DNA from: an uncultured Lewinella sp.
Lineage (GTDB): Bacteria; Bacteroidota; Bacteroidia; Chitinophagales; Saprospiraceae
Assembly: GCA_964616365.1 (NCBI GenBank)
Contig: CAZTTF010000117.1
Coordinates: 156-64,155 of the forward strand
Direction of reading: 5' to 3'
DNA length: 64,000 nucleotides
The notes under the pieces were generated by a model. That model searched no databases. It worked only from the letters and a program-made list of their open reading frames with translations, and was not told where the DNA came from. Positions 4,957 through 55,217 of the stretch are shown here, in pieces; position 1 is the first letter of the stretch; every line of letters starts with the position of its first letter. The position numbers and the translations under genes are program-made.

Positions 4957-7077
4957 ATGGAAACGATAGTTACGCAAACCCAGAACCAATTAAACGCTGC
5001 TGATCGGGCAGATATCGATGAGTTGACCAGCCGCATTTATGCTTACCAGCGTGGCCAGGAAGATGAGGATCGCTTCAAACACTACCGGCTTACACGTGGT
5101 GTCTACGGACAGCGCCAGCTTGGCGTGCATATGTTTCGGACCAAGATCCCTTTTGGACACTTGACCCCGGACCAGCTAATAGCCCTGGCTGATATCTCAG
5201 AACGTTATACCAACGGTCGCCTGCACATTACTACACGCCAGAATGTGCAGCTGCATTACGTCAAGTTGAATGACAGTCCCGCAATATGGAAAGATCTAGC
5301 CGCCGCCGGAATGACCGCACGCGAAGCCTGCGGAAACACTGTTCGTAACCTCACCGCCAGCCCCCTGGCTGGCGTCGACCCTGATGAACCTTTCGACGTC
5401 AGTCCATATGTGTACGCAGCCTTTGATTACTTCCTGCGCAACCCGATCTGCCAGGAAATGGGCCGTAAGATCAAGCCTGCCTTCTCTAGCAGTGAGAAAG
5501 ACTCTGCTTTCACTTACTTCCATGATTTCGGCTTCATTCCCCGAATTCAGGAAGGGGTGAAGGGCTTCAAAGTCGTCATCGGCGGCGGCCTTGGCGCCGT
5601 TTCCATGATTGCTCCTACGGCCTACGAGTTTTTGCCGGCTTCCAGCATCATCCCATTCATGGAGGCTGCGATCAGGGTTTTTGATCGCTACGGAGAGCGG
5701 GAGAAGCGCATGAAAGCCCGGATGAAATACCTGTTGAAAGATTTGGGACTGGAAAAATTGATGGCTCTGATCGAAGAAGAGATGCCAGCTGTTGCTCATA
5801 AAACCTATACCATCGATGAGCAGCTGGTTCCCGCCCTCGGAAATGTTCCTGGTGATAACTTCCCGGAGGTAGCTCCTTTACATGCCGGCCTGTACGCCGA
5901 ATGGTTGAAAACCAACGTGCTGGAACAAAAGCAGGGCGGCTACCGGGCAGTTGCCATTCGGATTCCCCTCGGTAATCTTGAGGCAGAACAGGCCCGGCTA
6001 CTCGCCGGCCTTATCAAAGAGTTTGCCTCCGACGACATTCGACTCAGCGTACAGCAGGGGATGGTCCTGCGCTACGTTCCTCCAAGTGCACTACCGCACC
6101 TGTTTAACGGTCTTTACGCCCTCAACCTAGGGCTGCCCGGCTACGATACCACCGCTGACATCACGGCTTGCCCGGGAACGGATACCTGCGCCCTGGGCGT
6201 AACTAATTCCACGGGCCTTGCGCGGGTGCTGGAAGACCTCATCCGTGACGAGTTTCCCGAGATGGTTACGGAAGATGATATCCGGATCAAAATATCCGGA
6301 TGTATGAATGGCTGTGGCCAGCACATGGCGGCCAATATTGGTTTCCATGGTAGTAGCATTCGGGTTGGCCAACGAATTGCACCTGCTATGCAGGTCGTTG
6401 TTGGCGGAGGCATCACTGACGACGGGCGCGGCTTCGTCGCGCAAAAAGTAATCAAAGTACCCACCCGGCGGGTCCCTCAGGTCATCAGAGACCTCTTTGC
6501 CGATTATAAAGACAATGCTGCCGAAGGAGAGTACTACAACGATTACGTTGTCCGGCAGGGCAAACGCTACTTCTACGATGTGCTCAAGCCGCTGGGTGAC
6601 AGCAAGACCATTACCGAAGAAGAATACTACGATTGGGGGCAGGACCACGAATACCGCCAGGAAATCGGAGTAGGGGAGTGTGCCGGTGTTTCTATCGACG
6701 TCATTGGCGCCATTCTGAACGACGCTTCTAACAAGATTATCGCTGCGGGCAAGTCCGCAGACAATGCCGCCTGGGCAGACGCAGGTTACCACGCTTACTC
6801 AGCCATGATTACGGCAGCAAAGGCCTTAATGCTTGCCGAGGATAAGAAGTGTAATACCCACATTGGTATCCTGCGCGATTTCTCCGAACACTTCGGAGAC
6901 CGCTTCTCCGAAGCAATGCCTTTTGAACAGTTCGTATTGCGCATCAAGCGCAATGAACCTACTAAAGACTTCGTGTCTGCCTACCTCGCTGACGCACGCG
7001 CATTTGTCTCTAAAGCTATCCGCGAGCGGGAGAGCCAATTGGATAAAACCGTGATCTCCGAATACTACAAAGCCTAG
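4957..7077 (+). CDS. Assimilatory sulfite reductase hemoprotein (siroheme/[4Fe-4S]) with a C-terminal extension
   Basis: 706 aa. Cys cluster TACPGTDTCALG ... SGCMNGCGQH typical of nitrite/sulfite reductases. Heads an operon with siroheme-synthesis genes and cysH. Confidence 0.85.
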   Translation: METIVTQTQNQLNAADRADIDELTSRIYAYQRGQEDEDRFKHYRLTRGVYGQRQLGVHMFRTKIPFGHLTPDQLIALADISERYTNGRLHITTRQNVQLHYVKLNDSPAIWKDLAAAGMTAREACGNTVRNLTASPLAGVDPDEPFDVSPYVYAAFDYFLRNPICQEMGRKIKPAFSSSEKDSAFTYFHDFGFIPRIQEGVKGFKVVIGGGLGAVSMIAPTAYEFLPASSIIPFMEAAIRVFDRYGEREKRMKARMKYLLKDLGLEKLMALIEEEMPAVAHKTYTIDEQLVPALGNVPGDNFPEVAPLHAGLYAEWLKTNVLEQKQGGYRAVAIRIPLGNLEAEQARLLAGLIKEFASDDIRLSVQQGMVLRYVPPSALPHLFNGLYALNLGLPGYDTTADITACPGTDTCALGVTNSTGLARVLEDLIRDEFPEMVTEDDIRIKISGCMNGCGQHMAANIGFHGSSIRVGQRIAPAMQVVVGGGITDDGRGFVAQKVIKVPTRRVPQVIRDLFADYKDNAAEGEYYNDYVVRQGKRYFYDVLKPLGDSKTITEEEYYDWGQDHEYRQEIGVGECAGVSIDVIGAILNDASNKIIAAGKSADNAAWADAGYHAYSAMITAAKALMLAEDKKCNTHIGILRDFSEHFGDRFSEAMPFEQFVLRIKRNEPTKDFVSAYLADARAFVSKAIRERESQLDKTVISEYYKA

Positions 7078-29289: not shown

Positions 29290-29600
29290 ACATGTATGCT
29301 CATGAAAGTGAGTCGTGAATTATGCAATTGGGAACGGGACGTCATCAACTGTACAGAAATAGGACATCTTTTCTTACTTCCCTGCAGGTTTCCTGTCGTA
29401 TCACCGACCCAAGGGGGGGAACATTTCGTCCGAATTCAAGACTAAAGACGTTCTAGTGACGTACATCCGTTACCTTGACCGGTAGTTGTTCTGCGGACGT
29501 TTTGGCCATTCGTCAAAACCAGGCGAGCACTATCTTCGTTAGGCCAACAACAACTGCCAACCGTGAACCGCTACCTGATAATAGCCAATTAACCTTACCC

Positions 29601-30572
29601 ATGACCAAACGCCTCCTTATACTTTTGCCACTTATGGCCGTCGGGCTGGTCATGTCCGCACAACAGTTACCACGCTACAGTATGCCATGGCTGGACCCCG
29701 TGCAATTTAACCCTGCTTACGCTGGCCTAGACAATAGCCTTAGTATTACCGGGACCTACCGTTCCCAGTGGACGGGGCTGGAAGGGCAGCCCGTAGGGCA
29801 GCGAGTCAGCGCTCATTTACCAATCTACTACCTCAGCAGTGGGGTAGGGGTAGAGGTGGAACTTGATGAAATCGGAGCCCGTGGGCTGAATAGTTTTGGT
29901 TTGTCCTACAATTACCAACTGGTCACCGGGCAGTCCGTCTGGTCTTTTGGTGTGTCAGCACGGATGCTGCAGTTAAGCCTCAACGGTCAGTTATTACGAA
30001 CACCAGAAGGTAACTATGAAGATCCTAACACGATCATTCACAACGATGCCTTGTTGCCGGTAGGCAACATCAATGACGGGTCATTGTCCCTGGGCGCTGG
30101 TGTTTTTTACCAATCAGAAAATCTTGAAGGTGGACTATCCGTCCGCAACCTCAATAATCCGGTTATTGCTTTTCCCGGCATCGATTACTCCCTGGAACAA
30201 CAGTATCACGGTTACCTCCGGGCACGATTTGACTTAATCAGGTCCTGGGAGGTGCTACCAATGGCCTATGCCGTTGTAGCCGGGCCGCAGCAGCAATTCT
30301 CCCTTGGGGCGATTGTCCGCTACGACGAGAATTTCTTCGCCGGCGCCCACTACCGGGGGCACAGCGGGCAGACTACGGACGCCGTAGTGCTAAGTGGTGG
30401 CCTGAACTTGAGTGAGAAGGTTACCCTTGCTTACTCCTTTGATCTGACGTTGTCTGACCTGCGTACGGTCCAGGACGGAAGCCACGAAATAACCATAAAA
30501 TATAACCTGCGACAACGCATCGGTGCGGGCGTGCTACCGCCCAGAATTTACCATCCGCGAGCCAAAGAATAG
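29601..30572 (+). CDS. PorP/SprF-family type IX secretion system membrane protein
   Basis: Signal peptide then QQLPRYSMPWLDPVQFNPAYAGL ... YRSQWTGLEG, the PorP/SprF N-terminal signature. Start moved to MTKRLL (29601). Confidence 0.8.
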   Translation: MTKRLLILLPLMAVGLVMSAQQLPRYSMPWLDPVQFNPAYAGLDNSLSITGTYRSQWTGLEGQPVGQRVSAHLPIYYLSSGVGVEVELDEIGARGLNSFGLSYNYQLVTGQSVWSFGVSARMLQLSLNGQLLRTPEGNYEDPNTIIHNDALLPVGNINDGSLSLGAGVFYQSENLEGGLSVRNLNNPVIAFPGIDYSLEQQYHGYLRARFDLIRSWEVLPMAYAVVAGPQQQFSLGAIVRYDENFFAGAHYRGHSGQTTDAVVLSGGLNLSEKVTLAYSFDLTLSDLRTVQDGSHEITIKYNLRQRIGAGVLPPRIYHPRAKE

Positions 30573-38651: not shown

Positions 38652-39473
38652 CTATACTTCGTTCAATCTGCCGGCACAGTATTTACAGTAAACTGCATCG
38701 TCATCGTGACCTTCCTCAGTACAGTATCTGCAGACCTGGGTGTTGTTTTTCTGGGACTTGCCGAAGTTCATCATCTCGTTAGTGACTATGCCAGTAGGGA
38801 CGGCAATGATGGCGTAGCCAAGAATCATGACGAGGGCAGAGAAGAACTGACCGATGTTTGTTTGGGGAGTAATGTCCCCATAGCCGACCGTAGTTAAAGT
38901 GACAATAGCCCAGTAGACAGCCCTGGGGATAGAACTGAAGCCTTCATTGGTGCCACCTTCGACGAGATACATGAAGGCCCCGATGATGACAACGAGCAGG
39001 CTTACCGCAAATAAGAATACCGTGATCTTATTACGGCTGGCAATCAGGGCTTTTCGGAGCTGATCTCCCTCGTTCAAGAATTTACCCAGCTTAAAAACCC
39101 GGAAGACCCGCAACAGCCTGAGGATACGGATTACAACTAAGTACTGAGTGCCGGCAAAAACAAGGCTGATGTAAGTTGGCATAATGGCCAACAGGTCTAT
39201 GATGCCGTAAAAGCTCAGTGCATACTTCATTGGCCGGATAGTTACCCACAGCCGCAAAAGGTACTCAAAAGTGAAAATGATGGTGAAAAACCATTCCAGG
39301 ACTACGAAGACATCGTGGTAGCGATTGTTCCATTCATCGGAACTCTCCAGACTTACGATCACAACCGAAAAGATGATCAGGACCATCAGGCTGATGTCGA
39401 AGATCTTCCCAAATCGGGTGTCAGCTTCAAAAATAACCTCATGGATACGGTCGCGTACCGGACGATCAGGCAT
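38652..39473 (-). CDS. Voltage-gated K+ channel (6-TM) with C-terminal zinc-ribbon
   Basis: 273 aa. S4 segment RILRLLRVFRVFKLGK, selectivity filter TTVGYGD and C-terminus CRYC-x11-CKYC. Confidence 0.85.
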   Translation of the reverse strand: MPDRPVRDRIHEVIFEADTRFGKIFDISLMVLIIFSVVIVSLESSDEWNNRYHDVFVVLEWFFTIIFTFEYLLRLWVTIRPMKYALSFYGIIDLLAIMPTYISLVFAGTQYLVVIRILRLLRVFRVFKLGKFLNEGDQLRKALIASRNKITVFLFAVSLLVVIIGAFMYLVEGGTNEGFSSIPRAVYWAIVTLTTVGYGDITPQTNIGQFFSALVMILGYAIIAVPTGIVTNEMMNFGKSQKNNTQVCRYCTEEGHDDDAVYCKYCAGRLNEV

Positions 39474-39704: not shown

Positions 39705-40469
39705 ATGCTCTTGAATGCAGTCATCGTCGAGGACGAGTTAAACGGCCTGATCAACCTCAAGCACTTGCTGGCAGAACACTGCAAAGATGTAGAGGTTATT
39801 GGGGATGCAGACGGTGTGGAAAGTGGTTTGAAATTGTTTGCCCAGGATGATATTACACCAGACGTAGCCTTTCTTGATATCAATCTACAGGATGGCAAGG
39901 TGTTTCAGTTACTGAATCGCCTTAATGAGGTCAATTTTGACATCATCTTCGTTACGGCTTACGACCAGTTTGCCATGAAGGCCTGCGAGTATTCCAGTAT
40001 CGGATATATTCTTAAACCCATTGATCCCGATAAATTAGTCGAAGCAGTTTCCCGGGTACGGCCACGGAATTCCGGGCGTACGGAGGAGCGTTTGAAGGTG
40101 ATGCAGAACTTCACTAATCACCCTAACTCGTTCGATAAGATGTCAATTGCGGCACTTGACGGCATCCACTTTGTGAAGATTAGGGACATTGTGCGCTTCG
40201 AAGCTGAAGATAATTATACCCACATCATGCTACGTGGAGGCAATCGGATCACGGCTTCCAAGACGATCAAAGCCTATGAGGACATGCTGTCACCGTTTAA
40301 TTTCTATCGTGTCCATAAACGTCACGTGATCAACATGAATTATATGAAAAAATTCGTCAAGGGAGAGGGGGGATACCTCGTGATGGATGATGACGTGAAG
40401 ATTGAAGTGAGCCGTCGGAGAAGGCCGGCATTCATGACGAGACTACGAGAACTTCAGGAAGTTCTTTAG
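39705..40469 (+). CDS. LytTR-family two-component response regulator
   Basis: 254 aa. Receiver domain (IVEDE, AFLDINL, FVTAY, ILKP) followed by a LytTR DNA-binding domain (FVKIRDIVRFEAEDNYTHI...YRVHKRHVIN). Confidence 0.9.
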   Translation: MLLNAVIVEDELNGLINLKHLLAEHCKDVEVIGDADGVESGLKLFAQDDITPDVAFLDINLQDGKVFQLLNRLNEVNFDIIFVTAYDQFAMKACEYSSIGYILKPIDPDKLVEAVSRVRPRNSGRTEERLKVMQNFTNHPNSFDKMSIAALDGIHFVKIRDIVRFEAEDNYTHIMLRGGNRITASKTIKAYEDMLSPFNFYRVHKRHVINMNYMKKFVKGEGGYLVMDDDVKIEVSRRRRPAFMTRLRELQEVL

Positions 40470-40581
40470 GTTCTTTGAGTTTTTTGAGCTATTTTTGTTT
40501 CGGTATATAATAACGGCTGAAAGGCGTCTCTAGCAAAGAGACCGGATTATTTTCAACGTGTACTTTATTAAGAATTATCCA

Positions 40582-40731
40582 ATGTCTAAAAACGGGAAAA
40601 AAACTATTGCGGAACTTCGGGGTGACCATAAGGATAACATCCTCGATTCCGACAAGATGGACCAGGTAACTGGAGGTAAGCGCAGTGGCACTTGGTTGCG
40701 TCGTGTTTACCACAGTATTGTCCCTCAATAA
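40582..40731 (+). CDS. Unannotated 49-aa peptide with double-glycine (GG) leader
   Basis: Hand-translated: MSKNGKKTIAELRGDHKDNILDSDKMDQVTGG|KRSGTWLRRVYHSIVPQ*. KxTIAxL...xGG resembles Bacteroidota GG-type precursor leaders. Lies between the RR and HK genes on the same strand. Below the length cut-off of the ORF track. Confidence 0.55.
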   Translation: MSKNGKKTIAELRGDHKDNILDSDKMDQVTGGKRSGTWLRRVYHSIVPQ

Positions 40732-40785
40732 TTAGAACTGGATGGCTCCGCGCGGTCTTTTTTCGGTTTAAAGGCCCTGCCAAAC

Positions 40786-42735
40786 ATGCAAACATCCGGT
40801 TCAGTCACTATTGAAGTAGGTACTCTTCAACGCAAGATTGCTGAATCCACTTCGGTGGAAGAAATCCTGATCTACCTCGAGCGGTTGATCAGGATTTTTA
40901 TTTACGTTGACCCTAAACAGGCCCATAACCATCTGCACGCAATGCAGGAGCTCCACGAGCGGGAGCGCGGAGGAGGCTTACCATTTTATTACCATCTGCA
41001 TCGGGCGAACCTTGCCAGCCTTGAATACGACGTTGAGCGCGCGCTCGATGAATTGGAGGCTGCCGTGAAAACCGTAGACCAGTACGGAGATATTACCGAA
41101 AAGATAGAGGTGTACCTCGATTACGTAGGGGTGCTGATCAACAACAAGGATTTGAAGAAAGCCCGGGATTATTTTGACCGGGCCGAGCGTCTCTTGGAGT
41201 CTTACCCCGATGAAATTCTGAAGGGTAGAGCTCTGGTTCGGGAGGGCTTCTTGTACGTTCACTCTTTCAGTTACGCGAAGGCAACACCCAAATTTCTGGA
41301 AGCTGATGGTATTTTTACGGCCAAGGAAGAGGCACTGTCGATTAAAGATCATTATTTCTATACCCTCTTGCACTCTGGTTTGGGCACCCTGCAGCTTCGA
41401 CCCGGAAACCTTTCTAAAGCGGCAGCCTCATTTCGTAAGGCCATTGAACGTTGTGAGGAAAAGGGCTTACGTGCACGTTTGGCCTGGCACCAGTTGAAGC
41501 TAGCTGACACTTTAGCGGCTGGCCTGGAATACGAGGAGGCTGTAGCCATTTACAACAGTGTACTCGCTCATTCTGGCTATGGGAGCCAGCAGGCTTTGGC
41601 CGCTACCTGCCATAACCTGGCCCTTTGTAAGTACCAGGCATCAGCGACCGTCGATCACCAAGAGATCAAAGGACTTCTTGATCAGGCAGAGGCACTCTTT
41701 CAGGCCTTGCCCAATCCGGACAAACAGAAATTGACTGCCATCGAAATTCTCCGGGCACAACTTGCTTTTGATGATGGAGACTATGATGGCGCTTCCTCTG
41801 CCCTCTGGCAGAGATTGCGGGAGCTGGAGCCAGACCAGAATCTTGATAATCCGATTGTCGTCGGGGCCACGGCTGAGATCTACCGCATCCTGGCCGAGTG
41901 CCATGCCAAGATGGAGGATTACAAATCGGCCTACACCCTACGCTTAATGTTCGATTACTACAACGAACAGCAGAACGGGCTGGAGGATTCACGATTACAG
42001 GAGGAATTTGCGGCGCGGTTTGCTGCCGCAACTTGGGAAAAAGAACGGGAAAGCTTGCAACTCCGGGCGTCCCAGTTGCAGCTCCGGGCATTGCGGGCGC
42101 AGATGAACCCCCATTTTCTTTTTAATGCCCTTAATAGCATCCAGTCGTTTATTACTACGCACGAGGCAAGCACCGCATCACGCTATCTGGCCAAGTTTGC
42201 CATGTTGATGCGACGCAGCCTCGAATATTCTAACCGGGAGTTCATCAGCCTTGAAGACGAAGTTCAGTTTCTGACGGAATACCTGGACGTCAACTGTAAA
42301 TTAAGATTCAGAGACAAGCTGCAATATTCCATTAAGGTTTCTCCGGAATTGGAGGAAGATGTTATCGGAGTCCCAACAATGATTATCCAACCCTACGTTG
42401 AGAATGCTATTGAGCACGGTTTGCGCTCAAGGCAGGAGGGGCGGATCACCGTCGAATTCGCCGTTGATCCCGAAGATGATGATAGCATTATCGCTACCAT
42501 CCTTGATGATGGAATCGGGCGAGAACAGGTTGCGAGAATGCATGCCGCTGACACCACGAGGAGCCAGCATCAGTCTCGTGGTACCAGCATTACCCAGTCG
42601 CGTCTGGAGTTGTTGTCCGGCACTAAGGAAGAACGCGTTGCCATAGATGACTTGTATCATGCTGATGGTAGAGCGGCAGGAACTTTAGTCCGGGTCAGAA
42701 TTCCCGTGGTTGACGTTGTTCCCAGGCGGGGGTAA
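40786..42735 (+). CDS. Soluble TPR-domain sensor histidine kinase (LytS/YehU-type His_kinase + HATPase)
   Basis: 649 aa. Phospho-His box MNPHFLFNALNSIQ, N box QPYVENAIEHG and G1 box LDDGIG. The ~430-aa N-terminal part is TPR-like repeats. No hydrophobic segment long enough for a TM helix. Confidence 0.85.
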   Translation: MQTSGSVTIEVGTLQRKIAESTSVEEILIYLERLIRIFIYVDPKQAHNHLHAMQELHERERGGGLPFYYHLHRANLASLEYDVERALDELEAAVKTVDQYGDITEKIEVYLDYVGVLINNKDLKKARDYFDRAERLLESYPDEILKGRALVREGFLYVHSFSYAKATPKFLEADGIFTAKEEALSIKDHYFYTLLHSGLGTLQLRPGNLSKAAASFRKAIERCEEKGLRARLAWHQLKLADTLAAGLEYEEAVAIYNSVLAHSGYGSQQALAATCHNLALCKYQASATVDHQEIKGLLDQAEALFQALPNPDKQKLTAIEILRAQLAFDDGDYDGASSALWQRLRELEPDQNLDNPIVVGATAEIYRILAECHAKMEDYKSAYTLRLMFDYYNEQQNGLEDSRLQEEFAARFAAATWEKERESLQLRASQLQLRALRAQMNPHFLFNALNSIQSFITTHEASTASRYLAKFAMLMRRSLEYSNREFISLEDEVQFLTEYLDVNCKLRFRDKLQYSIKVSPELEEDVIGVPTMIIQPYVENAIEHGLRSRQEGRITVEFAVDPEDDDSIIATILDDGIGREQVARMHAADTTRSQHQSRGTSITQSRLELLSGTKEERVAIDDLYHADGRAAGTLVRVRIPVVDVVPRRG

Positions 42736-42818: not shown

Positions 42819-43901
42819 CTATTTCTTAGTCTTCGCTCCGGAGATGATAATGCCGATATTATTGCTCTCTTTCTTCAACTGAGCGAGGGATTTTTTGCCT
42901 CCTTTGGTCGCAACATCATCTCCAAGAATGGAGGTATTTCCTTCGAAAAGACAGGATTCGGTGATGATACTACACTCACCAACCTCATTGGTCATATTGT
43001 AGACTGAGGAACCGTTGGACTTGGCAACGTTGTTTACAAATTGACAGCCTACGAGAAGCGGGACGGCAACGCCGTTCTCTCCATTATTGGTCATGGCTCC
43101 GCCGTATTTTGCTGCATTGTCTTGGAAGTAACAGTCCAGGAACTTTGCGTGTAGCTCCGTACCTTCTCCCATATTGTAGATGGCACCTCCTTTTGAATCA
43201 GCATGGTTATAGAGGAAGCGACAGTTTTCAAAGCTTGTAGCACCGGCACTTACATAAATCGCACCTCCGTTATGTGCCTTGTTCCGGGTGAACTCACAGT
43301 TTATCACCTGATGGGTAGGAAGGATGGAGGGCGTAGCTTCTATGTAGAGTGCTCCTCCGGCATTGCTGGCGCCAAAGCCATGCGTAAAGCCCCTCGCAGT
43401 ACCCTCAGTTATTTTAAAACCGTCAATCAGTGAAGGCTGACCACCACCAATGCGTAGTGTGACGACGGTGTAGGCGTTGTCACTATCTACTTGCTTATCT
43501 CCAATGTTGCCGGAAAGAATTGACCGGGTGTCGTGATGACGATCTGTTGGTCGTTGTTCATTGCCGTGAAAACCTCCGTAGACCTTAGTACCTGCGGGAA
43601 TAACGAAGCTGGCCAGTCGATCGTAGCCCTTGGTAGGGTAGTAGGTCCCCTTCATCACCCAGATTTCATCACCTGGCAAAGCAATAGCCAGTGCATTGGT
43701 GAGTGTGGTTGGAGCAGTCCAGGAATTACCAGCTTTCCCCTCGTCTCCCGCAGGAGAAACGAAGATTGTTGAGGCAGAGGTCGTACCACCAACAAGTGTG
43801 AGGAAAATAAATAACGCTAGATGCTTCAAAGCTGAATCCAATTTGCAAAGTCCCAAAAAATAGGTCGTCCTGTTTGGGAACCAGGAATAAGAAAAGAGCA
43901 A
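42819..43901 (-). CDS. Secreted parallel beta-helix repeat protein (Pmp-like GGAI repeats)
   Basis: 360 aa. Hydrophobic signal region LALFIFLTLVGG. Repeated GGALYIEA / NGGAIYVSA / KGGAIYNMG / YGGAMTNNG / NGSSVYNM. The true start may lie downstream of 43901. Confidence 0.55.
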   Translation of the reverse strand: MLFSYSWFPNRTTYFLGLCKLDSALKHLALFIFLTLVGGTTSASTIFVSPAGDEGKAGNSWTAPTTLTNALAIALPGDEIWVMKGTYYPTKGYDRLASFVIPAGTKVYGGFHGNEQRPTDRHHDTRSILSGNIGDKQVDSDNAYTVVTLRIGGGQPSLIDGFKITEGTARGFTHGFGASNAGGALYIEATPSILPTHQVINCEFTRNKAHNGGAIYVSAGATSFENCRFLYNHADSKGGAIYNMGEGTELHAKFLDCYFQDNAAKYGGAMTNNGENGVAVPLLVGCQFVNNVAKSNGSSVYNMTNEVGECSIITESCLFEGNTSILGDDVATKGGKKSLAQLKKESNNIGIIISGAKTKK

Positions 43902-44302
43902 ATGGAATTATACAGAGATAAGGTCCTGCGAATTAATGCTGGCAACACTCAAGCAGTAGAGGGTTGCATCGCAGATTTGGTAGTGTAAAATACTCTCTTA
44001 GTGTCAAACTCGAACAGCCCGTTGTCATCCGGGTCTGTAAATATACCATTTCTCGGTAAAAGCGGATCTATAATCGAAATAATTGCTGTTTTCGTTAGGG
44101 AACGGTATTGAAAATTTAAGGACCGGAATTATGTAAATTTCTCTAAAGCGTCGTACATTGCTGTCATATTCATATTCTGACATGGGAGGCGCGGCTCTTT
44201 TAGCCGTTTGAAATTAACTATTAACCAAGTGTGACCCTCTGGGGTCGACATCGTCGAACACTGTGTCAACACATGCGAATATTCTCATCTTTTATCGAAA
44301 AA

Positions 44303-45373
44303 ATGGCTATGTCTCATCTGCGCCTAGTGCTGGTGGTACTCCTTTTGGGGGTGCTGCCCAATCTTGTTGTTGCCCAAGATTTTCATTATTCCCAATTCTA
44401 CAGTGCCCCTCTTCACCTTAACCCTGCTTTGACCGGAATTTTTCGTGGAGATGTCAGGCTGATGGGCAATTATAAGTCTCAGTGGACAGACGTCCCCGTA
44501 GATTACAAGACGGTTACGCTGGCTGTTGATAAGAAGTTCCTGAAAGTTGCCGGAGAAAACAACAGCTTCTTCTCAGGAGGAATGGCCTTTAACTACGATC
44601 GGGCAGGGGATAGCAAGATGACCTGGGCAAACCTTGATCTTAATGCTTCCTACACGAAAGCCTTCTCTCCAAAGGTAATTATCAGTGGCGGAGCTAAAGC
44701 AGCTATCGTTCAACGGAGTTTTGACACAGGAAACCTGCGCTACAACAACCAGTTTGACGAAGTCCGGGGCAGTGTGAACCCCGACCTTCCGACCGGAGAG
44801 AATTTTAACAACGACGGCAATCTCTTCCCTGACTTTAGCCTGGGAGTAAACCTTCGTCTACAGGCAGAGCAGACCAGTGACCTTGTTTTCAGAAATGACC
44901 GGCGGTCTAAACTTGATCTCGGAGTCGCTCTTCATCACCTGTTCGCCCCGGATCAGTCCTTTTTTGATGACATCAAGGTTCCGATTGAGAGAAGACTCAG
45001 TCCTTACGCCATTGCTACGCTGCAAGTCCTTCCTGCTGTGGACATCCGCGCGGCAGTTACGTACCAGAATCAAGGCCCTTTCTACGACGAATTGGTGGCT
45101 ACTTTGGGCGGACAGTTTTGGGTAAAGAACACACTTGGCAAACAAGTAAGTATCATGGCAGGAATGGGACTACGCAGGGATAAGATTCAGGATTCCTACT
45201 GGCCAACCTTTGAGGTGACTTACAATAATTGGCAGGTCGGGTTGAATTATGATTTTAACACCAGTCCGTTTGACATTGCAACCGAAAACCGTGGCGGCTT
45301 AGAACTTTCTGTACGCTACATCATCAGAAAGATCCGACCTCTCCCCGAATTCAAAGTTTGTCCTTTGCTTTAA
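44303..45373 (+). CDS. PorP/SprF-family type IX secretion system membrane protein
   Basis: Signal peptide then QDFHYSQFYSAPLHLNPALTGIF...YKSQWT signature. Start moved to MAMSHL (44303) from the GTG at 44231. Confidence 0.85.
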   Translation: MAMSHLRLVLVVLLLGVLPNLVVAQDFHYSQFYSAPLHLNPALTGIFRGDVRLMGNYKSQWTDVPVDYKTVTLAVDKKFLKVAGENNSFFSGGMAFNYDRAGDSKMTWANLDLNASYTKAFSPKVIISGGAKAAIVQRSFDTGNLRYNNQFDEVRGSVNPDLPTGENFNNDGNLFPDFSLGVNLRLQAEQTSDLVFRNDRRSKLDLGVALHHLFAPDQSFFDDIKVPIERRLSPYAIATLQVLPAVDIRAAVTYQNQGPFYDELVATLGGQFWVKNTLGKQVSIMAGMGLRRDKIQDSYWPTFEVTYNNWQVGLNYDFNTSPFDIATENRGGLELSVRYIIRKIRPLPEFKVCPLL

Positions 45374-48165: not shown

Positions 48166-48224
48166 TTACGCCTTAGCGTATTTAACTAAAGCATTTTATC
48201 GTGAAACCAATGCTGACACTTACA

Positions 48225-51200
48225 ATGAAACACCTTGGACGTATACTAGGATTATTCCTGGTGGCACTCTGTGTTTTTCCTTCTTCTGTAGTAGCGACCG
48301 GTATTCAGGACGTAGCCCCAACAGCTGCTGATGCACCAGTTATGTTGGAAGCCGGCCGCCCTGGATTTGGCATTTTTGCCGAGTTTAATGGCCCCGAGGA
48401 TGGACGCCTCGTCGTTTCCATCGGTGATGCTTCAGAAGTACTTTATATTGGCCTGGCGCCAGAATACCGGGACAACGGGAGCCCTTTTAGCAGTGATAAC
48501 TTCTCACGTTATCGCTTTCAGATTCGTCAAATCACCTCTGATGGGACCAACCCGGTCGTTCACGGCCCCTTTACGATTGATAACGACAATGCTAACGTAA
48601 ACAGCTATGCTGAAGCAGCTTTTGGCGTGTATGAACTTGGGGAGACTCAGTTTGGAGATTCAATCTACGTTTTCCGGCCAGATGCTGCAGGAGAGTACTC
48701 TATTGAATTTGATGAATTCACTAATGATGGTAGCGCAAGGGTGACTATTCCTTTCTGGGATTTTACGGTTGTTCGTAACGGTTCACCGGTGGAAGGCCGC
48801 CTATGGTCACGGGGCTGGGCTTTTCGGACTCCGCAGGTAGATGGCTCAATCCAGCCAGATTGTGTTTGGGACCGTGAATTCAACGGCAACCTGTATAGCT
48901 ATACCGATGACGGGTTTGTATCCAGAATTAACTTTGTTAACTCGGGGCTGCAAGGCCTGTCGTTCAATATGGCATTTAACGAGAGAGGACCAGGGCAGAG
49001 TGGCGATATTGCTGCTGACAGGCAATCAATACCTGATGCGAACGGTACGGATGATGCAGCGCAACATCGAATCTTCCTTGATCTACCAGACATTAATCTA
49101 TTCCCTGATGGGGTATGTGGAGAAATCGACGCAGCACAAACTTTTACTTGTGATGGCGCTGCACCTTACTGTCTCGATGTGGCTGTGACTCGTCCTGGGC
49201 AGGTTAACATCATCCTCGATTTCAATGGGAATGGCGTTCTCGATGACAATAGCGAAGACGTCGCACTTGTGTATGATTTTGCCCCAGATGAACTTTCGAC
49301 TTGTGTCCCTTGGGACGGGCTTCGTGGAGATAGTACAGTCGCGGATTTTACTGATACTGTGGACATCATCATTACTTACTCTCAAGGTATTCAGCACTGG
49401 TCAGCATTTGATGTAGAATTCATGCGAAATGGTTTCTGTGTTGAAACCATCCGGCCAATTTGTCCGGGAACCATCTCGAGTGATATACTTTACTGGGACG
49501 ATCGTAATATCACTGAGGACCCAGGAACCGGATCCCCTAAGGATAACCGCAGCGGCAGTACTTGTCTTTTGACACCTCGTACCTGGGACTTCTTCGAGTT
49601 GAACAGTCCACAGTGTGATGACTTCGACGATGCCCTTACGAACGGTTACGGTGATAAGAATACGCTTAACACGTGGTGGTTCGCAAACAGTAGGTCTGAA
49701 TTCAGAGCTCGAGTTCCGGTGGTTTCTGCCAACATTACTGGTAGGACTGATTTCTGTTCTGGTGATGTATCCACGCTCGTTGCCTCTGATCCGGTTGCAA
49801 CCGGTCCGCTGACCTACCTATGGTCGGGCCCTGGAGTTGACGGCATGACCAATGATTCCATTGATGTTTCAGTAACCGGGCAGTACTGTGTAGTGGTGAG
49901 CGACGAGCTTGGTTGCTCAAACCAAACCTGTGTTGATGTGACGGTATTCGAGTTTGATTCTGATCAATTTCCTCCTGGCCTCTCGATCTGTTTTGGTGAC
50001 TCTATTCAAATGCCGGTTGCAGGTGATCCTACATTCACTTACGTCTGGACTCCGTCAATTGGTATTAGCTCAACTACATCAAACCAACCAACTTTTAGTC
50101 CGCAAGTAACAACAACTTATATTGCTACCATCAGTGGGGCATCCACTACGGGAGAGATATGTGAAATAACGGAAGAAATCACCATTGAGGTTGCTCCAGA
50201 AATAGGCCTTCAGGTCTTCGGTGGAGGCCCTATCTGCGACGAAACAACAACCATCATTGCTACAACGGTGAACCCAGCTACTGTTGAACTATTTGGCCCT
50301 GACGGTACGCTTATTGGCACCGGTAATGAATTTACCGTTCCGGTTAGTGGAGAGACAGATTATAGCCTGATTGCAACTAACACCCAGGGCTGTGTGGACT
50401 CAGCAAGCTTTACCGTTAGTGGCGGACCAGTAAATATTGAGGTGCCAGACTCAGTACTTACTTGTGTAAGTGATGGCGTGATGCTGGGGGTTACGAACCT
50501 TGACCCTAATGATATGCTCACTTACACGTGGTCTCCGGCAAACCTTTTCAGTCCTGCTTCCGTCAATACCGCAAACCCTGTGTTTGTCGGAGAACAAGGA
50601 GATTATACTGTTTCCGTTGTGGTGGAAAACCAGTACGGTTGTAGCGTTGAAGAGCAAGTTCAACTAATCGTTATTGACGATAACACAACGCTCTCCTTTG
50701 AGCCGGTTATTGATTGTGATGGTAGGACTGTAACCTTTGACAATACCAGTTCCGTAACCTTTGGTTATGTATACGACTTTGGGGATGGAACAATGAGTAA
50801 TGATGCTTCCCCGACCCACGTTTACCAGACTGCAGGAACCTTTACAGTGACTTTGGATCTTATCTATGATCAGGATTGTGTCGCTAGCTTTAGCCGCGAG
50901 GTTACCACCTTCGAAACACTAGTTGAAGCTGACTTCTCTATCGACTTCGGCAATTGTGATAATGGTAGTGCAACACTTCAATTTTTCGATCAGTCTGTGA
51001 ACCAGACAGGAGAACCATTGAACTACGCATGGACTTTCACCGGAGCCTCTCCGGCAAGCTCCTCGCTGGCAAATCCTATCGTTACTGTTGGTAACTCGGG
51101 CACGGTCACGGCCACGCTTATGGTGACTACAGTGGATGATTGTCCTTCTTCTTTGGATACGACAGTCACGGTTAATTTAGCAGTCGTTAACCTTCAGGAT

Positions 51201-54200
51201 GAGATTATCATCTGCCCGGGAGAGACAACACCATTAAATCCCGGTGGTAATCCGGATCTGATTTATAGCTGGTCACCAGCGCCTGATTTTGACGCAGATG
51301 CAGTTAACCCAGTTACTGGAACAGCTGGTACTTACATCGTAACGGTTACTAGTAATACTGCAGACTTCAACTGTGAAACTACAGACACAGTTACGGTTAT
51401 CATTCCTGATGATATTGGACTTGTAGTAAGTGGTCCCGATGGGCCAATCGATGATGATCCATTCTTACTCTCGCAGCTCCAAACTTGTGGAAATGCAATA
51501 GACTTGAGCATCGACCTTATGGTTAATGATGGTGTGACCGTTACCTACACCAGTACCGACGGAACGGTACTAGGCACAGGAAGTACTTTCTCCCTCAATC
51601 CTGATTCCAGAGATACCGTAATCATTACGGCGGTCAATGAATTCGGGTGTATTGAAAGCGATACGGTGGCGGTAATCAACCGCCAGGTTGATGCAGGCAT
51701 TGATATCGGTGCCGACGGCATCACCCTTTGTTCTGATGTAGATACTACGCTCAGCGTAGTTAACTTCGACCTTAGAGATACGCTTAGCTACCAGTGGGAG
51801 CCCAATGCGATTATCAACGGTCCTCTGGATGGGCCTACTGTAAGCATTACCAGCCCACTAGATGGAATCATCGACTTAATGGTTACGGTGACTAACCAGT
51901 TCGACTGTGATACCATGATCACAGTTCCAGTAATAGTGATACCTTTTACGCCTAACGACTATCCAGACGTTATCGAACCATGTTTTAGAGAACCATTCAC
52001 TATTGTAGGAGGTCCTGCACTTGATGGTTACACTTACGTATGGACGCCTAACGGTGACCTCGATTTAACGGATCCGGCAAATCCGGTGGGAACTTTTACC
52101 GAGGATGGTTCACTTGAGGTTGTCATCACTGATGAGACGACTGGCTGTACAATTACCAGGACGATCATCGTCGATACTGCTCCTGAGATCAGCTTTAGCG
52201 TTGATCCCGTTGAAACTGACATTTGTGGTACTGGGGTGGTTACAGTCACGGGGACTTCTGTGAATAGCAATGTAGTCATCACGTGGTACAACGATCCCGG
52301 ATTAACCGATGTCGCAGGTGTCGGTGCTACCATTGATATCAACGCTGATGTGATGGGCCAAACCTTCACCATCTTCGGCCAGGCACTGGATCCTTCAACC
52401 GGTTGTTCGCAGGTTGTTTCTGCTTCGGTAAATGCATTGGTATTCACGCCAAATATGTACCCTGAAGTTGTGACTCCATGTTTCGGAGACCCAATTACAA
52501 TTGAGGGCGGTGACGCAGTCGCTGGTTACACTTATGAGTGGACGCCTAACGGAGATTTAGATTTAACGGACCCCGCCAACCCGGTTGGCGTCTTTACCGA
52601 AGACGTGGAGCTTGTAGTGGTCATTACCGATCCAGTTACGGGCTGTTCCGTAAATGATACGGTATTCGTTGATACTGCCCCGGAAATCAGCTTTAGTGTG
52701 GAGCCTGAGCAAACAGACATCTGTGGTACTGGTGTAGTAACGGTCACCGGTTCATCCGTAAACGACAATATTGTTATCACTTGGTACAATGATGCTGCAC
52801 TTACTGATGTAGCTGGTGTTGGTCCGACGTTTGATATTGACGCGAATGCCATGGGACAAACCTTTACCATATTCGGACAGGCGGTAGATCCAACTACCGG
52901 ATGTGCGCAGGTTGTTTCAGCTTCCGTTAATACCCTGATTTTTACACCAAATATGTATCCTGAGGTTGTAACACCTTGTTACGGCGAACCGATTACCATC
53001 GTAGGAGGGGCTACTGTTGCCGGTTACACTTACGAGTGGACACCCAATGGTGATCTTGATCTTTCTGACCCGGCAAACCCCATCGGTGTATTTACCGAGG
53101 ATGTTGAATTAGTTGTGGTAATCACAGACCCGGTTACGGGTTGTACCGTAAACGACACTGTATTCGTTGACACCGCTCCGGAAATCAGCTTCAATGTTGA
53201 CCCTGCAGAAACGAACATCTGTGGAACAGATGTAATCACCGTAACGGGCACTTCAGTAAATGATAATGTTGTCATTACCTGGTACAGTGATGAAGACTTG
53301 ACCAATGCAGTTGGCACAGGCCCAACCTTCGATATTGACGCCAATGTGATGGGATCTACCTTCACCGTATACGGTGAGGCCCTTGACCCTGCAACGGGTT
53401 GTTCTCAGGTTCTGCCTGCTATGGTCAATACAATCATCTTCATGCCAAATGATTTCCCAGATACGGTGACACCGTGTTTTGGAGAGCAATTCACGATTGT
53501 TGGCGGAGATGCAGTAGCTGGCTACACCTACGACTGGATGCCCAGCGATGGATTAGACCTTTCCGATCCCGCTAACCCCGTTGGTGTGTTTACGGAAGAT
53601 GTAGAGCTGGTAGTTACCATTACTGATCCACTAACGAATTGTTCTATTAACGATACCATCTTTGTGGACACCGCTCCTGAGATAGCCTTTACGGTTGATC
53701 CCCCACTGACAAACATTTGTGGTACGGGTATAGTGAATGTTGATGGTGCTTCTCCCAACGAAGACGTCGTGATCACCTGGTATAATGACCCTGAGTTAAC
53801 GGATGTGGCAGGTACCGGACCACGCTTCACCATTTTCGCTGATGTTATGGGGCAAACTTATACCATTTACGGTGAGGCGGTTGATACCATCACGGGCTGT
53901 TCTCAATCGCTACCCGCATCGGTAGTAACCACCGAATTTACGCCAAACCAGTACGAAGATGTTGTGACGCCTTGTTTTGCGGAAGCCTTCACGCTTGTTG
54001 GAGGGGATATCATTGATGGGTACACCTATACTTGGAACCCAAGTGACAACCTCGATTTGACTGATCCGGCAAACCCCGTCGGCATATTTACGGAGGACAC
54101 TGATATTTCCGTAACCATCACTGATCCTGAAACGGGATGTACTGAAACGCAGAATATTTCGGTGCAAGTACTCCCCGAAATCAGTTTCATGGCGAGCTCC

Positions 54201-55217
54201 GTGGATACTACGCTATGTGAACCAGGAATGGTTACCATTACCGGTTCTTCCGTTAATGAAGCCGTTGAGATCGTATGGTATGATGATCAGGAATTGACTA
54301 ATGAAATTGGTCAGGGACCTGTTTACATCATCGACGCTGCCGAACCAGGCCAGGGCTATGTGATTTACGGAGTAGCCACTGATACTAATACTGAGTGTCA
54401 GCAGGTGCTTCCGATCAAAGTAACGGTATCGGAACTTACCCTTGGCCTACCGCTCGATTCAATCGCAGCTTGTGCCGGCGAAACACCACCAATTTTTGGT
54501 GAGTTGGGTGCCTCCGGTAACCTGGAATACACCTTCACACCGGCTGATCTTGTCGATGACTCCGATCCGTTAAACCCAATATTTATCGGTAGTGCTTCTG
54601 CTGAAATTGTCGTAAACGTTTTTGACCCGGCAACAGAGTGTAGCGCAGAGAATACGGTTGTCGTTGATATTACGGACTTGACGATGCTGCAAGGTTTTGC
54701 CAACCCCACTGAAATCTTTGTTGGAGATCAGTCTGAGCTTACCGTCACCGGTTGTGATGGTTGTGAATATGAGTGGTTCCCACAGGACGGTACCGTTAGT
54801 CCAACCACTGGTTCAACGGTCATTGCTACGCCCACCGAGCCCGGCGATTACGTTTATGAGGTTGATGTAACCCAAAATGGCTGTCTCGAAACGGTACTGA
54901 TCGAGCTAAGGGTAGAAGATCCGATTTGTGATACCGATCGAATCTTTGTGCCTAACGCGTTCACACCAAACGGTGACAACATGAACGACGTCCTTCGGGT
55001 GAGGTCAAACTTTGCTGAGCTTCTGACGGAATTCCGCTTCATTATCTACAACCGGTGGGGCCAGGAAGTATTCAGTAGCGATGATATCAATAATGGCTGG
55101 GACGGAACAGCAGAAGGTGATGACCTCGAACCTGACGTCTACGGTTACTGGCTAAGAGTCCGGTGTCCTTCCGGAGAAGAATTGATTCAACGCGGAAACG
55201 TTACGATTCAACGATAA
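48225..55217 (+). CDS. Giant cell-surface adhesin-like protein with T9SS type-B sorting domain (gliding motility-associated C-terminal domain)
   Basis: About 2,330 aa. Signal peptide MKHLGRILGLFLVALCVFPSSVVA. PKD-like module (YDFGDGT...THVY). Many Ig-like Cys-containing modules. C-terminus FVPNAFTPNGDNMNDVL...IYNRWGQEVF...GWDG...YGYWL is the type-B CTD signature. The track start (GTG 48201) is also possible. Confidence 0.9.
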   Translation: MKHLGRILGLFLVALCVFPSSVVATGIQDVAPTAADAPVMLEAGRPGFGIFAEFNGPEDGRLVVSIGDASEVLYIGLAPEYRDNGSPFSSDNFSRYRFQIRQITSDGTNPVVHGPFTIDNDNANVNSYAEAAFGVYELGETQFGDSIYVFRPDAAGEYSIEFDEFTNDGSARVTIPFWDFTVVRNGSPVEGRLWSRGWAFRTPQVDGSIQPDCVWDREFNGNLYSYTDDGFVSRINFVNSGLQGLSFNMAFNERGPGQSGDIAADRQSIPDANGTDDAAQHRIFLDLPDINLFPDGVCGEIDAAQTFTCDGAAPYCLDVAVTRPGQVNIILDFNGNGVLDDNSEDVALVYDFAPDELSTCVPWDGLRGDSTVADFTDTVDIIITYSQGIQHWSAFDVEFMRNGFCVETIRPICPGTISSDILYWDDRNITEDPGTGSPKDNRSGSTCLLTPRTWDFFELNSPQCDDFDDALTNGYGDKNTLNTWWFANSRSEFRARVPVVSANITGRTDFCSGDVSTLVASDPVATGPLTYLWSGPGVDGMTNDSIDVSVTGQYCVVVSDELGCSNQTCVDVTVFEFDSDQFPPGLSICFGDSIQMPVAGDPTFTYVWTPSIGISSTTSNQPTFSPQVTTTYIATISGASTTGEICEITEEITIEVAPEIGLQVFGGGPICDETTTIIATTVNPATVELFGPDGTLIGTGNEFTVPVSGETDYSLIATNTQGCVDSASFTVSGGPVNIEVPDSVLTCVSDGVMLGVTNLDPNDMLTYTWSPANLFSPASVNTANPVFVGEQGDYTVSVVVENQYGCSVEEQVQLIVIDDNTTLSFEPVIDCDGRTVTFDNTSSVTFGYVYDFGDGTMSNDASPTHVYQTAGTFTVTLDLIYDQDCVASFSREVTTFETLVEADFSIDFGNCDNGSATLQFFDQSVNQTGEPLNYAWTFTGASPASSSLANPIVTVGNSGTVTATLMVTTVDDCPSSLDTTVTVNLAVVNLQDEIIICPGETTPLNPGGNPDLIYSWSPAPDFDADAVNPVTGTAGTYIVTVTSNTADFNCETTDTVTVIIPDDIGLVVSGPDGPIDDDPFLLSQLQTCGNAIDLSIDLMVNDGVTVTYTSTDGTVLGTGSTFSLNPDSRDTVIITAVNEFGCIESDTVAVINRQVDAGIDIGADGITLCSDVDTTLSVVNFDLRDTLSYQWEPNAIINGPLDGPTVSITSPLDGIIDLMVTVTNQFDCDTMITVPVIVIPFTPNDYPDVIEPCFREPFTIVGGPALDGYTYVWTPNGDLDLTDPANPVGTFTEDGSLEVVITDETTGCTITRTIIVDTAPEISFSVDPVETDICGTGVVTVTGTSVNSNVVITWYNDPGLTDVAGVGATIDINADVMGQTFTIFGQALDPSTGCSQVVSASVNALVFTPNMYPEVVTPCFGDPITIEGGDAVAGYTYEWTPNGDLDLTDPANPVGVFTEDVELVVVITDPVTGCSVNDTVFVDTAPEISFSVEPEQTDICGTGVVTVTGSSVNDNIVITWYNDAALTDVAGVGPTFDIDANAMGQTFTIFGQAVDPTTGCAQVVSASVNTLIFTPNMYPEVVTPCYGEPITIVGGATVAGYTYEWTPNGDLDLSDPANPIGVFTEDVELVVVITDPVTGCTVNDTVFVDTAPEISFNVDPAETNICGTDVITVTGTSVNDNVVITWYSDEDLTNAVGTGPTFDIDANVMGSTFTVYGEALDPATGCSQVLPAMVNTIIFMPNDFPDTVTPCFGEQFTIVGGDAVAGYTYDWMPSDGLDLSDPANPVGVFTEDVELVVTITDPLTNCSINDTIFVDTAPEIAFTVDPPLTNICGTGIVNVDGASPNEDVVITWYNDPELTDVAGTGPRFTIFADVMGQTYTIYGEAVDTITGCSQSLPASVVTTEFTPNQYEDVVTPCFAEAFTLVGGDIIDGYTYTWNPSDNLDLTDPANPVGIFTEDTDISVTITDPETGCTETQNISVQVLPEISFMASSVDTTLCEPGMVTITGSSVNEAVEIVWYDDQELTNEIGQGPVYIIDAAEPGQGYVIYGVATDTNTECQQVLPIKVTVSELTLGLPLDSIAACAGETPPIFGELGASGNLEYTFTPADLVDDSDPLNPIFIGSASAEIVVNVFDPATECSAENTVVVDITDLTMLQGFANPTEIFVGDQSELTVTGCDGCEYEWFPQDGTVSPTTGSTVIATPTEPGDYVYEVDVTQNGCLETVLIELRVEDPICDTDRIFVPNAFTPNGDNMNDVLRVRSNFAELLTEFRFIIYNRWGQEVFSSDDINNGWDGTAEGDDLEPDVYGYWLRVRCPSGEELIQRGNVTIQR
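51944..54433 (+). repeat. Five tandem 498-bp (166-aa) coding repeats inside the giant adhesin gene
   Basis: Units start with FTPN(D/M/Q)YP(D/E)V(I/V)xPCF at about 51944, 52442, 52940, 53438 and 53936. A periodic ladder of antisense shadow ORFs in the track shows the same spacing. Confidence 0.9.

Follow-up and report, generated by a model that had tools for sequence, protein, structure and literature searches.

A conserved small-peptide gene between a LytTR regulator and a soluble histidine kinase in Lewinella-like Bacteroidota: a candidate signalling-peptide precursor

A 64,000-nucleotide stretch of DNA from an uncultured Lewinella sp. (GenBank assembly GCA_964616365.1, contig CAZTTF010000117.1, positions 156 to 64,155; hereafter the window) contains an open reading frame (ORF) of only 49 codons between the genes of a response regulator and a histidine kinase, at 40582..40731 on the forward strand. 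The locus raises the question of whether so short a frame is a gene and, if it is, what its product does between the two parts of a two-component system. The analyses described below show that the ORF is a real, conserved small-peptide gene under purifying selection. With a confidence only slightly above even, it is proposed to specify a small signalling peptide of the flanking two-component system, made as a precursor. The peptide is probably the system's own signal because, in marine Lewinella-like Bacteroidota, it is nearly always encoded between a LytTR regulator and a histidine kinase with a tetratricopeptide repeat (TPR) sensor.

Coding evidence and the peptide family

Translation from the ATG start to the TAA stop yields a 49-residue product, MSKNGKKTIAELRGDHKDNILDSDKMDQVTGGKRSGTWLRRVYHSIVPQ, with a Gly-Gly pair at residues 31–32, in agreement with the frame proposed by an earlier reading of this DNA (the sequence-only reading). 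A word-index protein search identified 49-residue homologues with 96% and 84% identity in the identical position; on their metagenomic contigs, some of them from Tara Oceans, each is flanked by this regulator and this kinase. In DNA alignments of relatives, the substitutions within the ORF cluster at third codon positions. Comparison of the window with related locus L001 by the Nei-Gojobori method revealed 20 synonymous and 4 non-synonymous differences, 21 of the 24 at codon position 3, corresponding to a ratio of non-synonymous to synonymous substitution rates (dN/dS) of 0.025. The ratio ranges from 0.025 to 0.25 within this subgroup, in which synonymous sites are saturated, and from 0.009 to 0.10 in a second subgroup. 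DNA alignments lose their similarity directly past the peptide stop codon, and the length, start, and stop of the ORF are kept among relatives down to approximately 25% identity.

The frame could in principle be a spurious ORF inside a conserved non-coding intergenic region, given that it is short, has no Pfam or NCBIfam match, and went uncalled in the source record. Such a reading is at odds with the codon-position pattern and dN/dS values, with the preserved length, start, and stop, with the 36 clusters of homologues recovered by profile search, and with the prediction of the ORF by gene callers in many other assemblies; the substitution pattern effectively refutes it. The exact window peptide is absent from a collection of 15 billion proteins in which the kinase from the same NCBI record (P0048) is present, and the peptide gene therefore appears to have been left uncalled in the source genome. 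A known RNA element was rejected as an explanation for the region, since an Rfam scan gave no match at E ≤ 1.

An overlapping 79-residue ORF on the minus strand (40489..40728) was likewise judged non-coding. The frame exists in the window, as the sequence-only reading had noted with doubt, but it is broken by stop codons in relatives (L001, L002, L007, L096, L015–L017, L093, and L098), and Pfam and NCBIfam scans returned no family match for it.

Homologues of the peptide were gathered by several routes. A first profile search returned 13 proteins, and a profile search of 1.84 billion representative sequences identified 36 representative clusters (E ≤ 1e-3), all of 44–88 residues. A degenerate DNA pattern for CGGIVPQ followed by a stop codon, which samples the Cys-containing subfamily only, matched metagenomes 52 times, and 27 of these matches were family members. 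Distant versions were found by searching genomes with the kinase and then reading the upstream DNA; they include MRKKRKDLSSYKGKDEIPKEKQDKLKGG followed by KKNKKWGRGNSCGNIVPQ in L015–L017 and MKKKKDQSLERLKSELQVLSKEEMHRIRGG followed by SREPRFNPKWFHRCEGRMPQ in L018. In all, 64 distinct peptides were collected, and these constitute the sample for the position counts given below. The family is unnamed: every member with a source name is annotated as 'hypothetical protein', including WP_020570984.1 from Neolewinella persica and WP_167641616.1 from N. marina, with further homologues in N. lacunae, N. litorea, and Lewinella sp. IMCC34183. The 90%-identity cluster that holds the N. persica peptide also lists protoporphyrinogen oxidases of 348–498 residues from Acidimicrobiaceae, evidently a database clustering artefact.

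Leader and core of the peptide

The peptide appears to consist of two parts, a leader of residues 1–32 (MSKNGKKTIAELRGDHKDNILDSDKMDQVTGG, 40582..40677 on the forward strand) and a predicted mature core of 17 residues (KRSGTWLRRVYHSIVPQ, 40678..40728). Double-glycine (GG) leaders are recognized by ATP-binding cassette (ABC) exporters with a C39 peptidase domain (PCATs) according to an experimentally derived rule, established with ComA and LahT, of Leu(-12)-X3-Glu(-8)-Leu(-7) before the GG together with a hydrophobic residue at -4, and PCAT exporters are present in Bacteroidetes (PMC6363468). In the window peptide and across the family, a Gly-Gly pair (Gly-Ala and Gly-Ser also occur in this class) closes an N-terminal leader within the 15–35 residues expected, with Gly at -2 in 64/64 and at -1 in 63/64 peptides. 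At the family level, the remaining positions also follow the pattern. Position -4 is Val, Ile, or Leu in every member; -7 is hydrophobic in 86%, with Met in 52 peptides; -8 is acidic in 66%; -12 is hydrophobic in 100% and mostly Leu or Ile; and -15 is hydrophobic in 52%. The window leader has Val at -4, Met at -7, and Leu at -12, but Lys at -8 and Asp at -15.

Curated profiles give a more divided answer. The window peptide matched no Pfam or NCBIfam profile, GG-leader hidden Markov models (HMMs) included, even at E ≤ 10. Among the 36 family members searched, 16 matched TIGR04149 (E ≤ 1; best E 1.8e-5), 5 matched TIGR01847 (E ≤ 1), and 6 matched NF038153, the leader model for Bacteroidota class I lanthipeptides. 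Members inspected individually scored 15.6–19.9 bits against the 25-bit cut-off of TIGR04149 and 18.1–19.2 bits against the 22-bit cut-off of NF038153, so that curated matches to TIGR04149 or TIGR01847 above the cut-off were not obtained. The position counts match the PCAT rule and in this respect support the Bacteroidota-style double-glycine leader suggested by the sequence-only reading, while formal HMM membership fails for the window sequence. On the strength of the family pattern, we assign the leader to the GG type, and the precursor would then be cleaved after the GG and exported.

The core has four basic and no acidic residues, for a net charge of +4, and contains Trp, Tyr, and His, so that the cationic, aromatic character proposed for it holds on translation. 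Across the family, the core varies from 16 to 27 residues behind a fixed leader, with a median net charge of +4 and Trp in 47/64 members. Its C-terminal end is the invariant part, with Pro at -2 in 64/64 and Gln at -1 in 63/64 cores. Cys occupies position -7 from the C-terminus in 52/64, and the commonest C-terminal sequence is CGGIVPQ. The window subgroup has Tyr in place of this Cys (…RRVYHSIVPQ), a one-base change relative to N. persica (…RRVCGGIMPQ), whose predicted core is KRRGSWLRRVCGGIMPQ.

A short cationic core (median charge +4) with Trp and usually one Cys would also suit a secreted antimicrobial, either an unmodified GG-leader bacteriocin or a ribosomally synthesized and post-translationally modified peptide (RiPP) matured elsewhere, in which case the two-component system would merely regulate its production. 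Bacteroidota GG leaders are mostly known from bacteriocin and RiPP precursors, and weak matches were found to the bactofencin A model (two members), to a Chryseobacterium bacteriocin-leader model (one), and to the class I lanthipeptide leader model (the six mentioned above). Set against this, no immunity gene, transporter, or modification enzyme adjoins the peptide gene in seven genomic contexts, signalling proteins are its sole conserved neighbours, and there is one copy per locus. In addition, the C-terminal heptapeptide is kept across genera, unlike in fast-evolving toxins, and the Cys is dispensable, being replaced by Tyr in the window subgroup. An antimicrobial function is thus considered improbable.

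The regulator–peptide–kinase cassette

The sequence-only reading had placed the peptide beside a two-component system in place of the radical-SAM (S-adenosylmethionine) maturase or exporter usual for such precursors, and both parts of this observation hold. Directly upstream lies a LytTR-family response regulator gene (39705..40469, forward strand; Pfam Response_reg and LytTR), and downstream a sensor histidine kinase gene (40786..42735, forward strand; PF06580 and HATPase). In fetched loci, a LytTR regulator 60–78% identical to that of the window is encoded directly upstream in 22 of 24 distinct peptide variants, and a homologous kinase (36–40% identity to the window kinase) follows in 15 of the 17 loci whose sequence extends at least 2.5 kb downstream, in one of them weakly. 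Genes outside the triad change with lineage and comprise an ion channel/BrkB and a Pel9A-like protein; LemA/TPM-phosphatase and an extracytoplasmic function (ECF) sigma factor; a SAM synthetase and an endonuclease-like protein; SbcC and an RRM protein; or LptC/SurA. The cassette is conserved across these unrelated flanks, and the two-component system is the conserved partner of the peptide. Named kinase relatives come from Neolewinella, Lewinella, Phaeodactylibacter, and metagenome-assembled genomes of Saprospiraceae/Saprospirales, the best named match to the window being N. lacunae (53%), and the cassette is carried by the cultured type strains N. persica, N. marina, N. lacunae, N. litorea, and Lewinella sp. 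IMCC34183.

Departures from this arrangement occur. Two lineages (L110/L105/L133 and L118/L138) keep the regulator and the peptide with unrelated genes in place of the kinase; in L110 (peptide at 6091–6255), L118 (1362–1511), and the other three loci, the genes in the kinase position are oppositely oriented. In L118, the regulator gene may be interrupted: a search for ATG-initiated ORFs yields no more than its C-terminal 112 residues, although one tblastn high-scoring segment pair spans 254. L016 carries the peptide (3581–3721) and the kinase with no recognizable LytTR regulator within 3.5 kb upstream, unlike its relatives L015 and L017. Conversely, TPR kinase homologues in L013 and L014 (Haliscomenobacter) and in L019–L022 are full-length and 31–36% identical but have neither regulator nor peptide adjacent, and they were treated as paralogous soluble TPR kinases rather than as members of the cassette.

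The architecture of the kinase is central to any functional model. Pfam matches and an AlphaFold2 model (69 homologues; mean pLDDT, the predicted local distance difference test score, 86.1) point to a TPR superhelix of approximately nine helix pairs over residues 1–378, a long helix at 379–458 that leads into the phospho-acceptor region with the invariant H443 in the motif NPHF, a second helix, and the HATPase domain; the Pfam boundaries are 432–512 for His_kinase (PF06580) and 533–641 for HATPase. Neither a membrane segment (maximum Kyte-Doolittle 19-residue average, 1.17) nor a signal peptide was found in the window kinase. The partner kinases of other family members likewise lack both, the single exception reflecting an upstream ATG chosen by the ORF rule. 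A kinase without a membrane segment does not fit a simple scheme in which the inducer is extracellular and is perceived at the membrane.

A Foldseek search of the PDB with the kinase model returned phage phi3T Rap proteins with bound pheromones at the top (8rtc_A, E 6.8e-8). The top 50 also included RapI, phage phi105 Rap with its peptide, and the peptide-binding TPR domains of LGN/Pins, with RapJ-PhrC (4gyo) and NprR (5dbk) within the top 35. The TM-scores of the Rap-like matches, normalized to the target, are modest, at 0.55–0.61. Sequence-profile comparison with the PDB yielded mainly generic TPR proteins and the histidine-kinase core (6swj), with weak matches to Rap3T, RapJ, and RapF at E ~1e-4, and for this reason the resemblance of the modelled TPR fold to Rap peptide receptors is suggestive, not diagnostic. 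The regulator is far better conserved than the kinase. Domain by domain, identity falls from 76% in the regulator to 60% in the kinase core and 41% in the TPR region (a small sample of seven distinct loci). Invariant residues of the TPR region include Y81, R148, R152, R231, and W234. That the TPR region diverges most is expected if the sensor co-diversifies with its ligand.

A cytoplasmic kinase could equally be controlled from within the cell. MgrB, SafA, Sda, and KipI are small proteins that act on their kinases, and the 49-residue product, neither cleaved nor exported, could bind the TPR domain as a feedback inhibitor or activator. Such an intracellular modulator would fit the cytoplasmic location of the window kinase and its family counterparts, the lack of a linked exporter or peptidase among the large ORFs of the window and in the seven contexts, and the tight three-gene linkage, as expected of a stoichiometric partner; moreover, TPR domains classically bind C-termini, and the Pro-Gln-COOH end of the peptide is invariant. 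The leader argues otherwise. A near-invariant GG with hydrophobic residues at -4, -7, and -12 and an acidic -8 constitutes a PCAT signature for which a simple binder has no obvious need, many members match the TIGR04149 and TIGR01847 leader models, and a fixed leader before a variable core of 16–27 residues is what cleaved precursors look like. Control by an uncleaved small protein is therefore rated as unlikely, if a shade less so than an antimicrobial role.

Sequence elements around the peptide gene were examined for signs of its expression. Directly past the regulator stop codon and 92 nucleotides upstream of the peptide ATG lies TATTTTTG (40490..40497, forward strand), a candidate Bacteroidota -7-type promoter-like element that is invariant among close relatives. 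The pattern TAnnTTT[GA], which we take to be the Bacteroidota -7-type promoter element, occurs within 120 nucleotides upstream of the peptide gene in 25/30 family loci, a count that overstates independence as many of the loci are related to one another; shuffled controls gave 6.2 +/- 2.1 and the opposite strand 7/30. A sigma-70-like promoter match was also found at 40484–40511. The last codons of the regulator, directly before the promoter-like region, contain a perfect 8-nucleotide inverted repeat, AGAACTTC-ag-GAAGTTCT (40448–40465). LytTR-type direct repeats, sought as 9-bp repeats with 19–23-nucleotide spacing and at least 8/9 matches, did not recur in the 30 upstream regions. A CCGGAT-like motif spotted by eye occurs in a few loci only and was set aside.

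Downstream of the peptide stop, the palindrome ccgcgcgg (40748–40755) and the T-run tcttttttc are present as the sequence-only reading described, but their interpretation as a terminator is unsupported. A terminator scan called no intrinsic terminator past the stop codon, and RNA folding places the T-run inside a weak hairpin between the peptide stop and the kinase start (40754..40776, forward strand), in which GGUCUUU (40754–40760) pairs with AAAGGCC (40770–40776) across 9 nucleotides (z-score 0.21) with no U-tail. Peptide–kinase spacers in the window (40730–40785), L001, L007, L096, and L153 contain a hairpin of 5–10 bp with a loop of 5–15 nucleotides just 5' of the kinase start. Its sequence differs by lineage, the L001 and L096 hairpins are significantly more stable than shuffles, and the element may be attenuating or stabilizing. 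In the window, peptide and kinase share a reading frame, with one TAA and 17 sense codons between them. A read-through fusion was rejected in view of spacer lengths of 53 nucleotides in L001 and 31–410 nucleotides elsewhere, and because the length varies among loci, the in-frame arrangement is regarded as a coincidence.

The spacer hairpin invites the further idea that the ORF acts in cis, its nascent peptide stalling the ribosome and, by way of this hairpin, controlling transcription or translation of the downstream kinase. An invariant C-terminal Pro-Gln with a frequent Trp approximately 11 residues upstream recalls arrest peptides, of which TnaC is an example, and a hairpin separates the stop codon from the kinase start in several relatives. 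However, the spacer ranges from about 30 to 410 nucleotides, the hairpin differs in sequence between relatives, the peptide persists in two lineages that lack a kinase downstream of it, the scheme gives no role to the conserved GG-leader pattern at the N-terminus, and no Rfam element was detected. A cis-acting upstream ORF is accordingly a very remote prospect.

Beyond the triad, a gene for a voltage-gated-type K+ channel (38652..39473, minus strand; Ion_trans, with a TVGYGD filter) is a frequent neighbour. In the window, L001, L018, L099 (6154–6990, minus strand), L111, L115, L131, and L153 (3778–4602, minus strand), it is found upstream of the regulator in divergent orientation, and in N. 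marina (L154, 8001–8852, plus strand) it immediately follows the kinase and is encoded on the same strand; other loci have none. The channel (Ion_trans/Ion_trans_2, with a Cys-rich C-terminal tail) thus adjoins the cassette in about half of the loci and may be a regulatory target or a part of the system. Farther downstream, 48201–55217 (plus strand) encodes a 2338-residue protein in which a segment of about 190 residues recurs several times almost unchanged. PKD/Ig_7/CHU_C domains in its homologues from L001 and L096 suggest that it is a substrate of type IX secretion. Homologues of window ORFs 29475–30572 and 44231–45373 (both plus strand) are PorP/SprF-family genes, and that of 42819–43901 (minus strand) is a Pel9A-like/Chlam_PMP beta-helix protein; this block is syntenic in close relatives.

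A candidate signalling circuit

A working model for the signalling peptide can be assembled from these features. The gene would be transcribed from its own promoter-like element just past the regulator gene, and the 32-residue leader would be removed after Gly31-Gly32 by a PCAT encoded elsewhere in the genome, freeing the cationic 17-mer. The N-terminal TPR superhelix of the membrane-less kinase would then recognize the peptide, probably via the invariant C-terminal Pro-Gln and the residues preceding it, and binding would alter, in either direction, phosphotransfer to the LytTR regulator, perhaps with a role in sensing cell density. With a cytoplasmic sensor, the peptide would have to return to the cell once exported, as RRNPP pheromones do, or else act before export or in its absence. 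The most elaborate version, in which a GG-leader peptide is exported, processed, taken up again, and bound by the Rap/NprR-like TPR domain of a LytS-type kinase that signals to the LytTR regulator, is put forward tentatively and with considerable doubt.

Several considerations weigh against the assignment of the peptide as the signal of the system. An exported signal sits awkwardly with a cytoplasmic sensor in a bacterium that has two membranes and no known route of uptake. No Peptidase_C39/ABC exporter, importer, or maturase was found among window ORFs of at least 600 residues (which encode an acyltransferase, a sulfite reductase, a SASA esterase, the kinase, a 918-residue protein, and the 2338-residue adhesin) or within approximately 10 kb in the seven contexts, and neither radical-SAM and lanthipeptide enzymes nor immunity-like genes are among the neighbours in those contexts or among these large window ORFs. 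The most conserved part of the core is common to several genera, unlike usual strain-specific pheromones. The absence of HMM matches for the window peptide and the sub-threshold scores of its relatives, the modest TM-scores against Rap proteins, the general resemblance of TPR superhelices to one another, and the lineages that keep regulator and peptide with no kinase all count in the same direction. Nothing supports auto-induction of the peptide gene, with no LytTR-type direct repeats recurring upstream of it.

Comparison with known systems places the cassette between several of them. By analogy, it would work most like the three-component pheromone systems of Firmicutes, ComC/ComD/ComE, BlpC/BlpH/BlpR, and PlnA/PlnB/PlnCD, in which a GG-leader precursor is likewise encoded beside a histidine kinase and a LytTR regulator and the leader follows the same -12/-8/-7/-4/GG rule. 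The resemblance fails at the membrane receptor: the kinases of those systems are polytopic HPK10 proteins that sense outside, whereas here the kinase is of the PF06580 (LytS/YehU) type, with a TPR sensor and no membrane segment. In contrast to ComCDE, moreover, the gene order is regulator–peptide–kinase, no ComAB-like exporter is linked, LytTR direct repeats do not recur upstream, and the host is a Gram-negative member of the Bacteroidota.

In the RRNPP/RRNPPA systems (Rap/Phr, NprR/NprX, PlcR/PapR, PrgX, and AimR), a peptide gene adjoins a cytoplasmic TPR-superhelix receptor, as the structural model suggests for the present cassette. Their receptors are transcription factors or phosphatases with a helix-turn-helix or three-helix-bundle output, whereas the output here is His_kinase plus HATPase, and their propeptides have Sec-type signal peptides, whereas the window precursor has a hydrophilic N-terminus and a GG leader with no hydrophobic signal segment. 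In several of these systems, Phr and PapR among them, activity resides in the C-terminal end of the propeptide, and in the present family the C-terminus is what stays invariant. At the sequence level, the kinase is marginally similar to Rap (E ~1e-4). Accounts of RRNPP systems describe them for Firmicutes and their mobile elements (PMC10075063, PMC9765709).

The precursors of the TIGR04149 family (GG_sam_targ_CFB) and other GG-leader precursors of Bacteroidota share with this family a leader of the form M-(K-rich)-L..L......L..(D/E)M..I.GG. TIGR04149 systems have an adjacent radical-SAM maturase, whereas neither such an enzyme nor a PCAT is found among the neighbours here, and the present core is cationic and ends in CGGIVPQ or YHSIVPQ. 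LytS/LytR and BtsS/BtsR (YehU/YehT), finally, pair the same kinase core (PF06580 plus HATPase) with a LytTR regulator, and LytR and BtsR are the best NCBIfam matches of the window regulator, far below the cut-offs. The LytS and BtsS kinases, in contrast, are 5TM-LYT membrane sensors of small molecules or membrane state, and their operons have no peptide gene.

Peptide pheromone signalling is a textbook Gram-positive trait, and full-text literature searches retrieved no report of a peptide–two-component cassette in Bacteroidota. Beyond the ORF that the sequence-only reading had singled out, the locus is a conserved peptide–two-component cassette with a soluble, Rap-like TPR kinase, which is unusual for the phylum, and it includes a conserved gene missed by annotation in the source genome. 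The cassette lends itself to direct tests, since it occurs in cultured type strains and its predicted mature peptides are short and amenable to synthesis. Were the re-import model to be correct, two Gram-positive paradigms would be merged in a Gram-negative phylum, and the cassette would count as a two-component system that senses peptides in the cytoplasm and as a candidate for quorum sensing in Lewinellaceae/Saprospiraceae. More generally, if the peptide is the ligand of the kinase, the fusion of a soluble TPR peptide receptor with a histidine kinase would represent a new sensor architecture, the cassette would link peptide sensing by membrane kinases with that of the RRNPP type in evolutionary terms, and it would offer an entry to cell–cell or feedback signalling in abundant marine particle-associated Bacteroidota.

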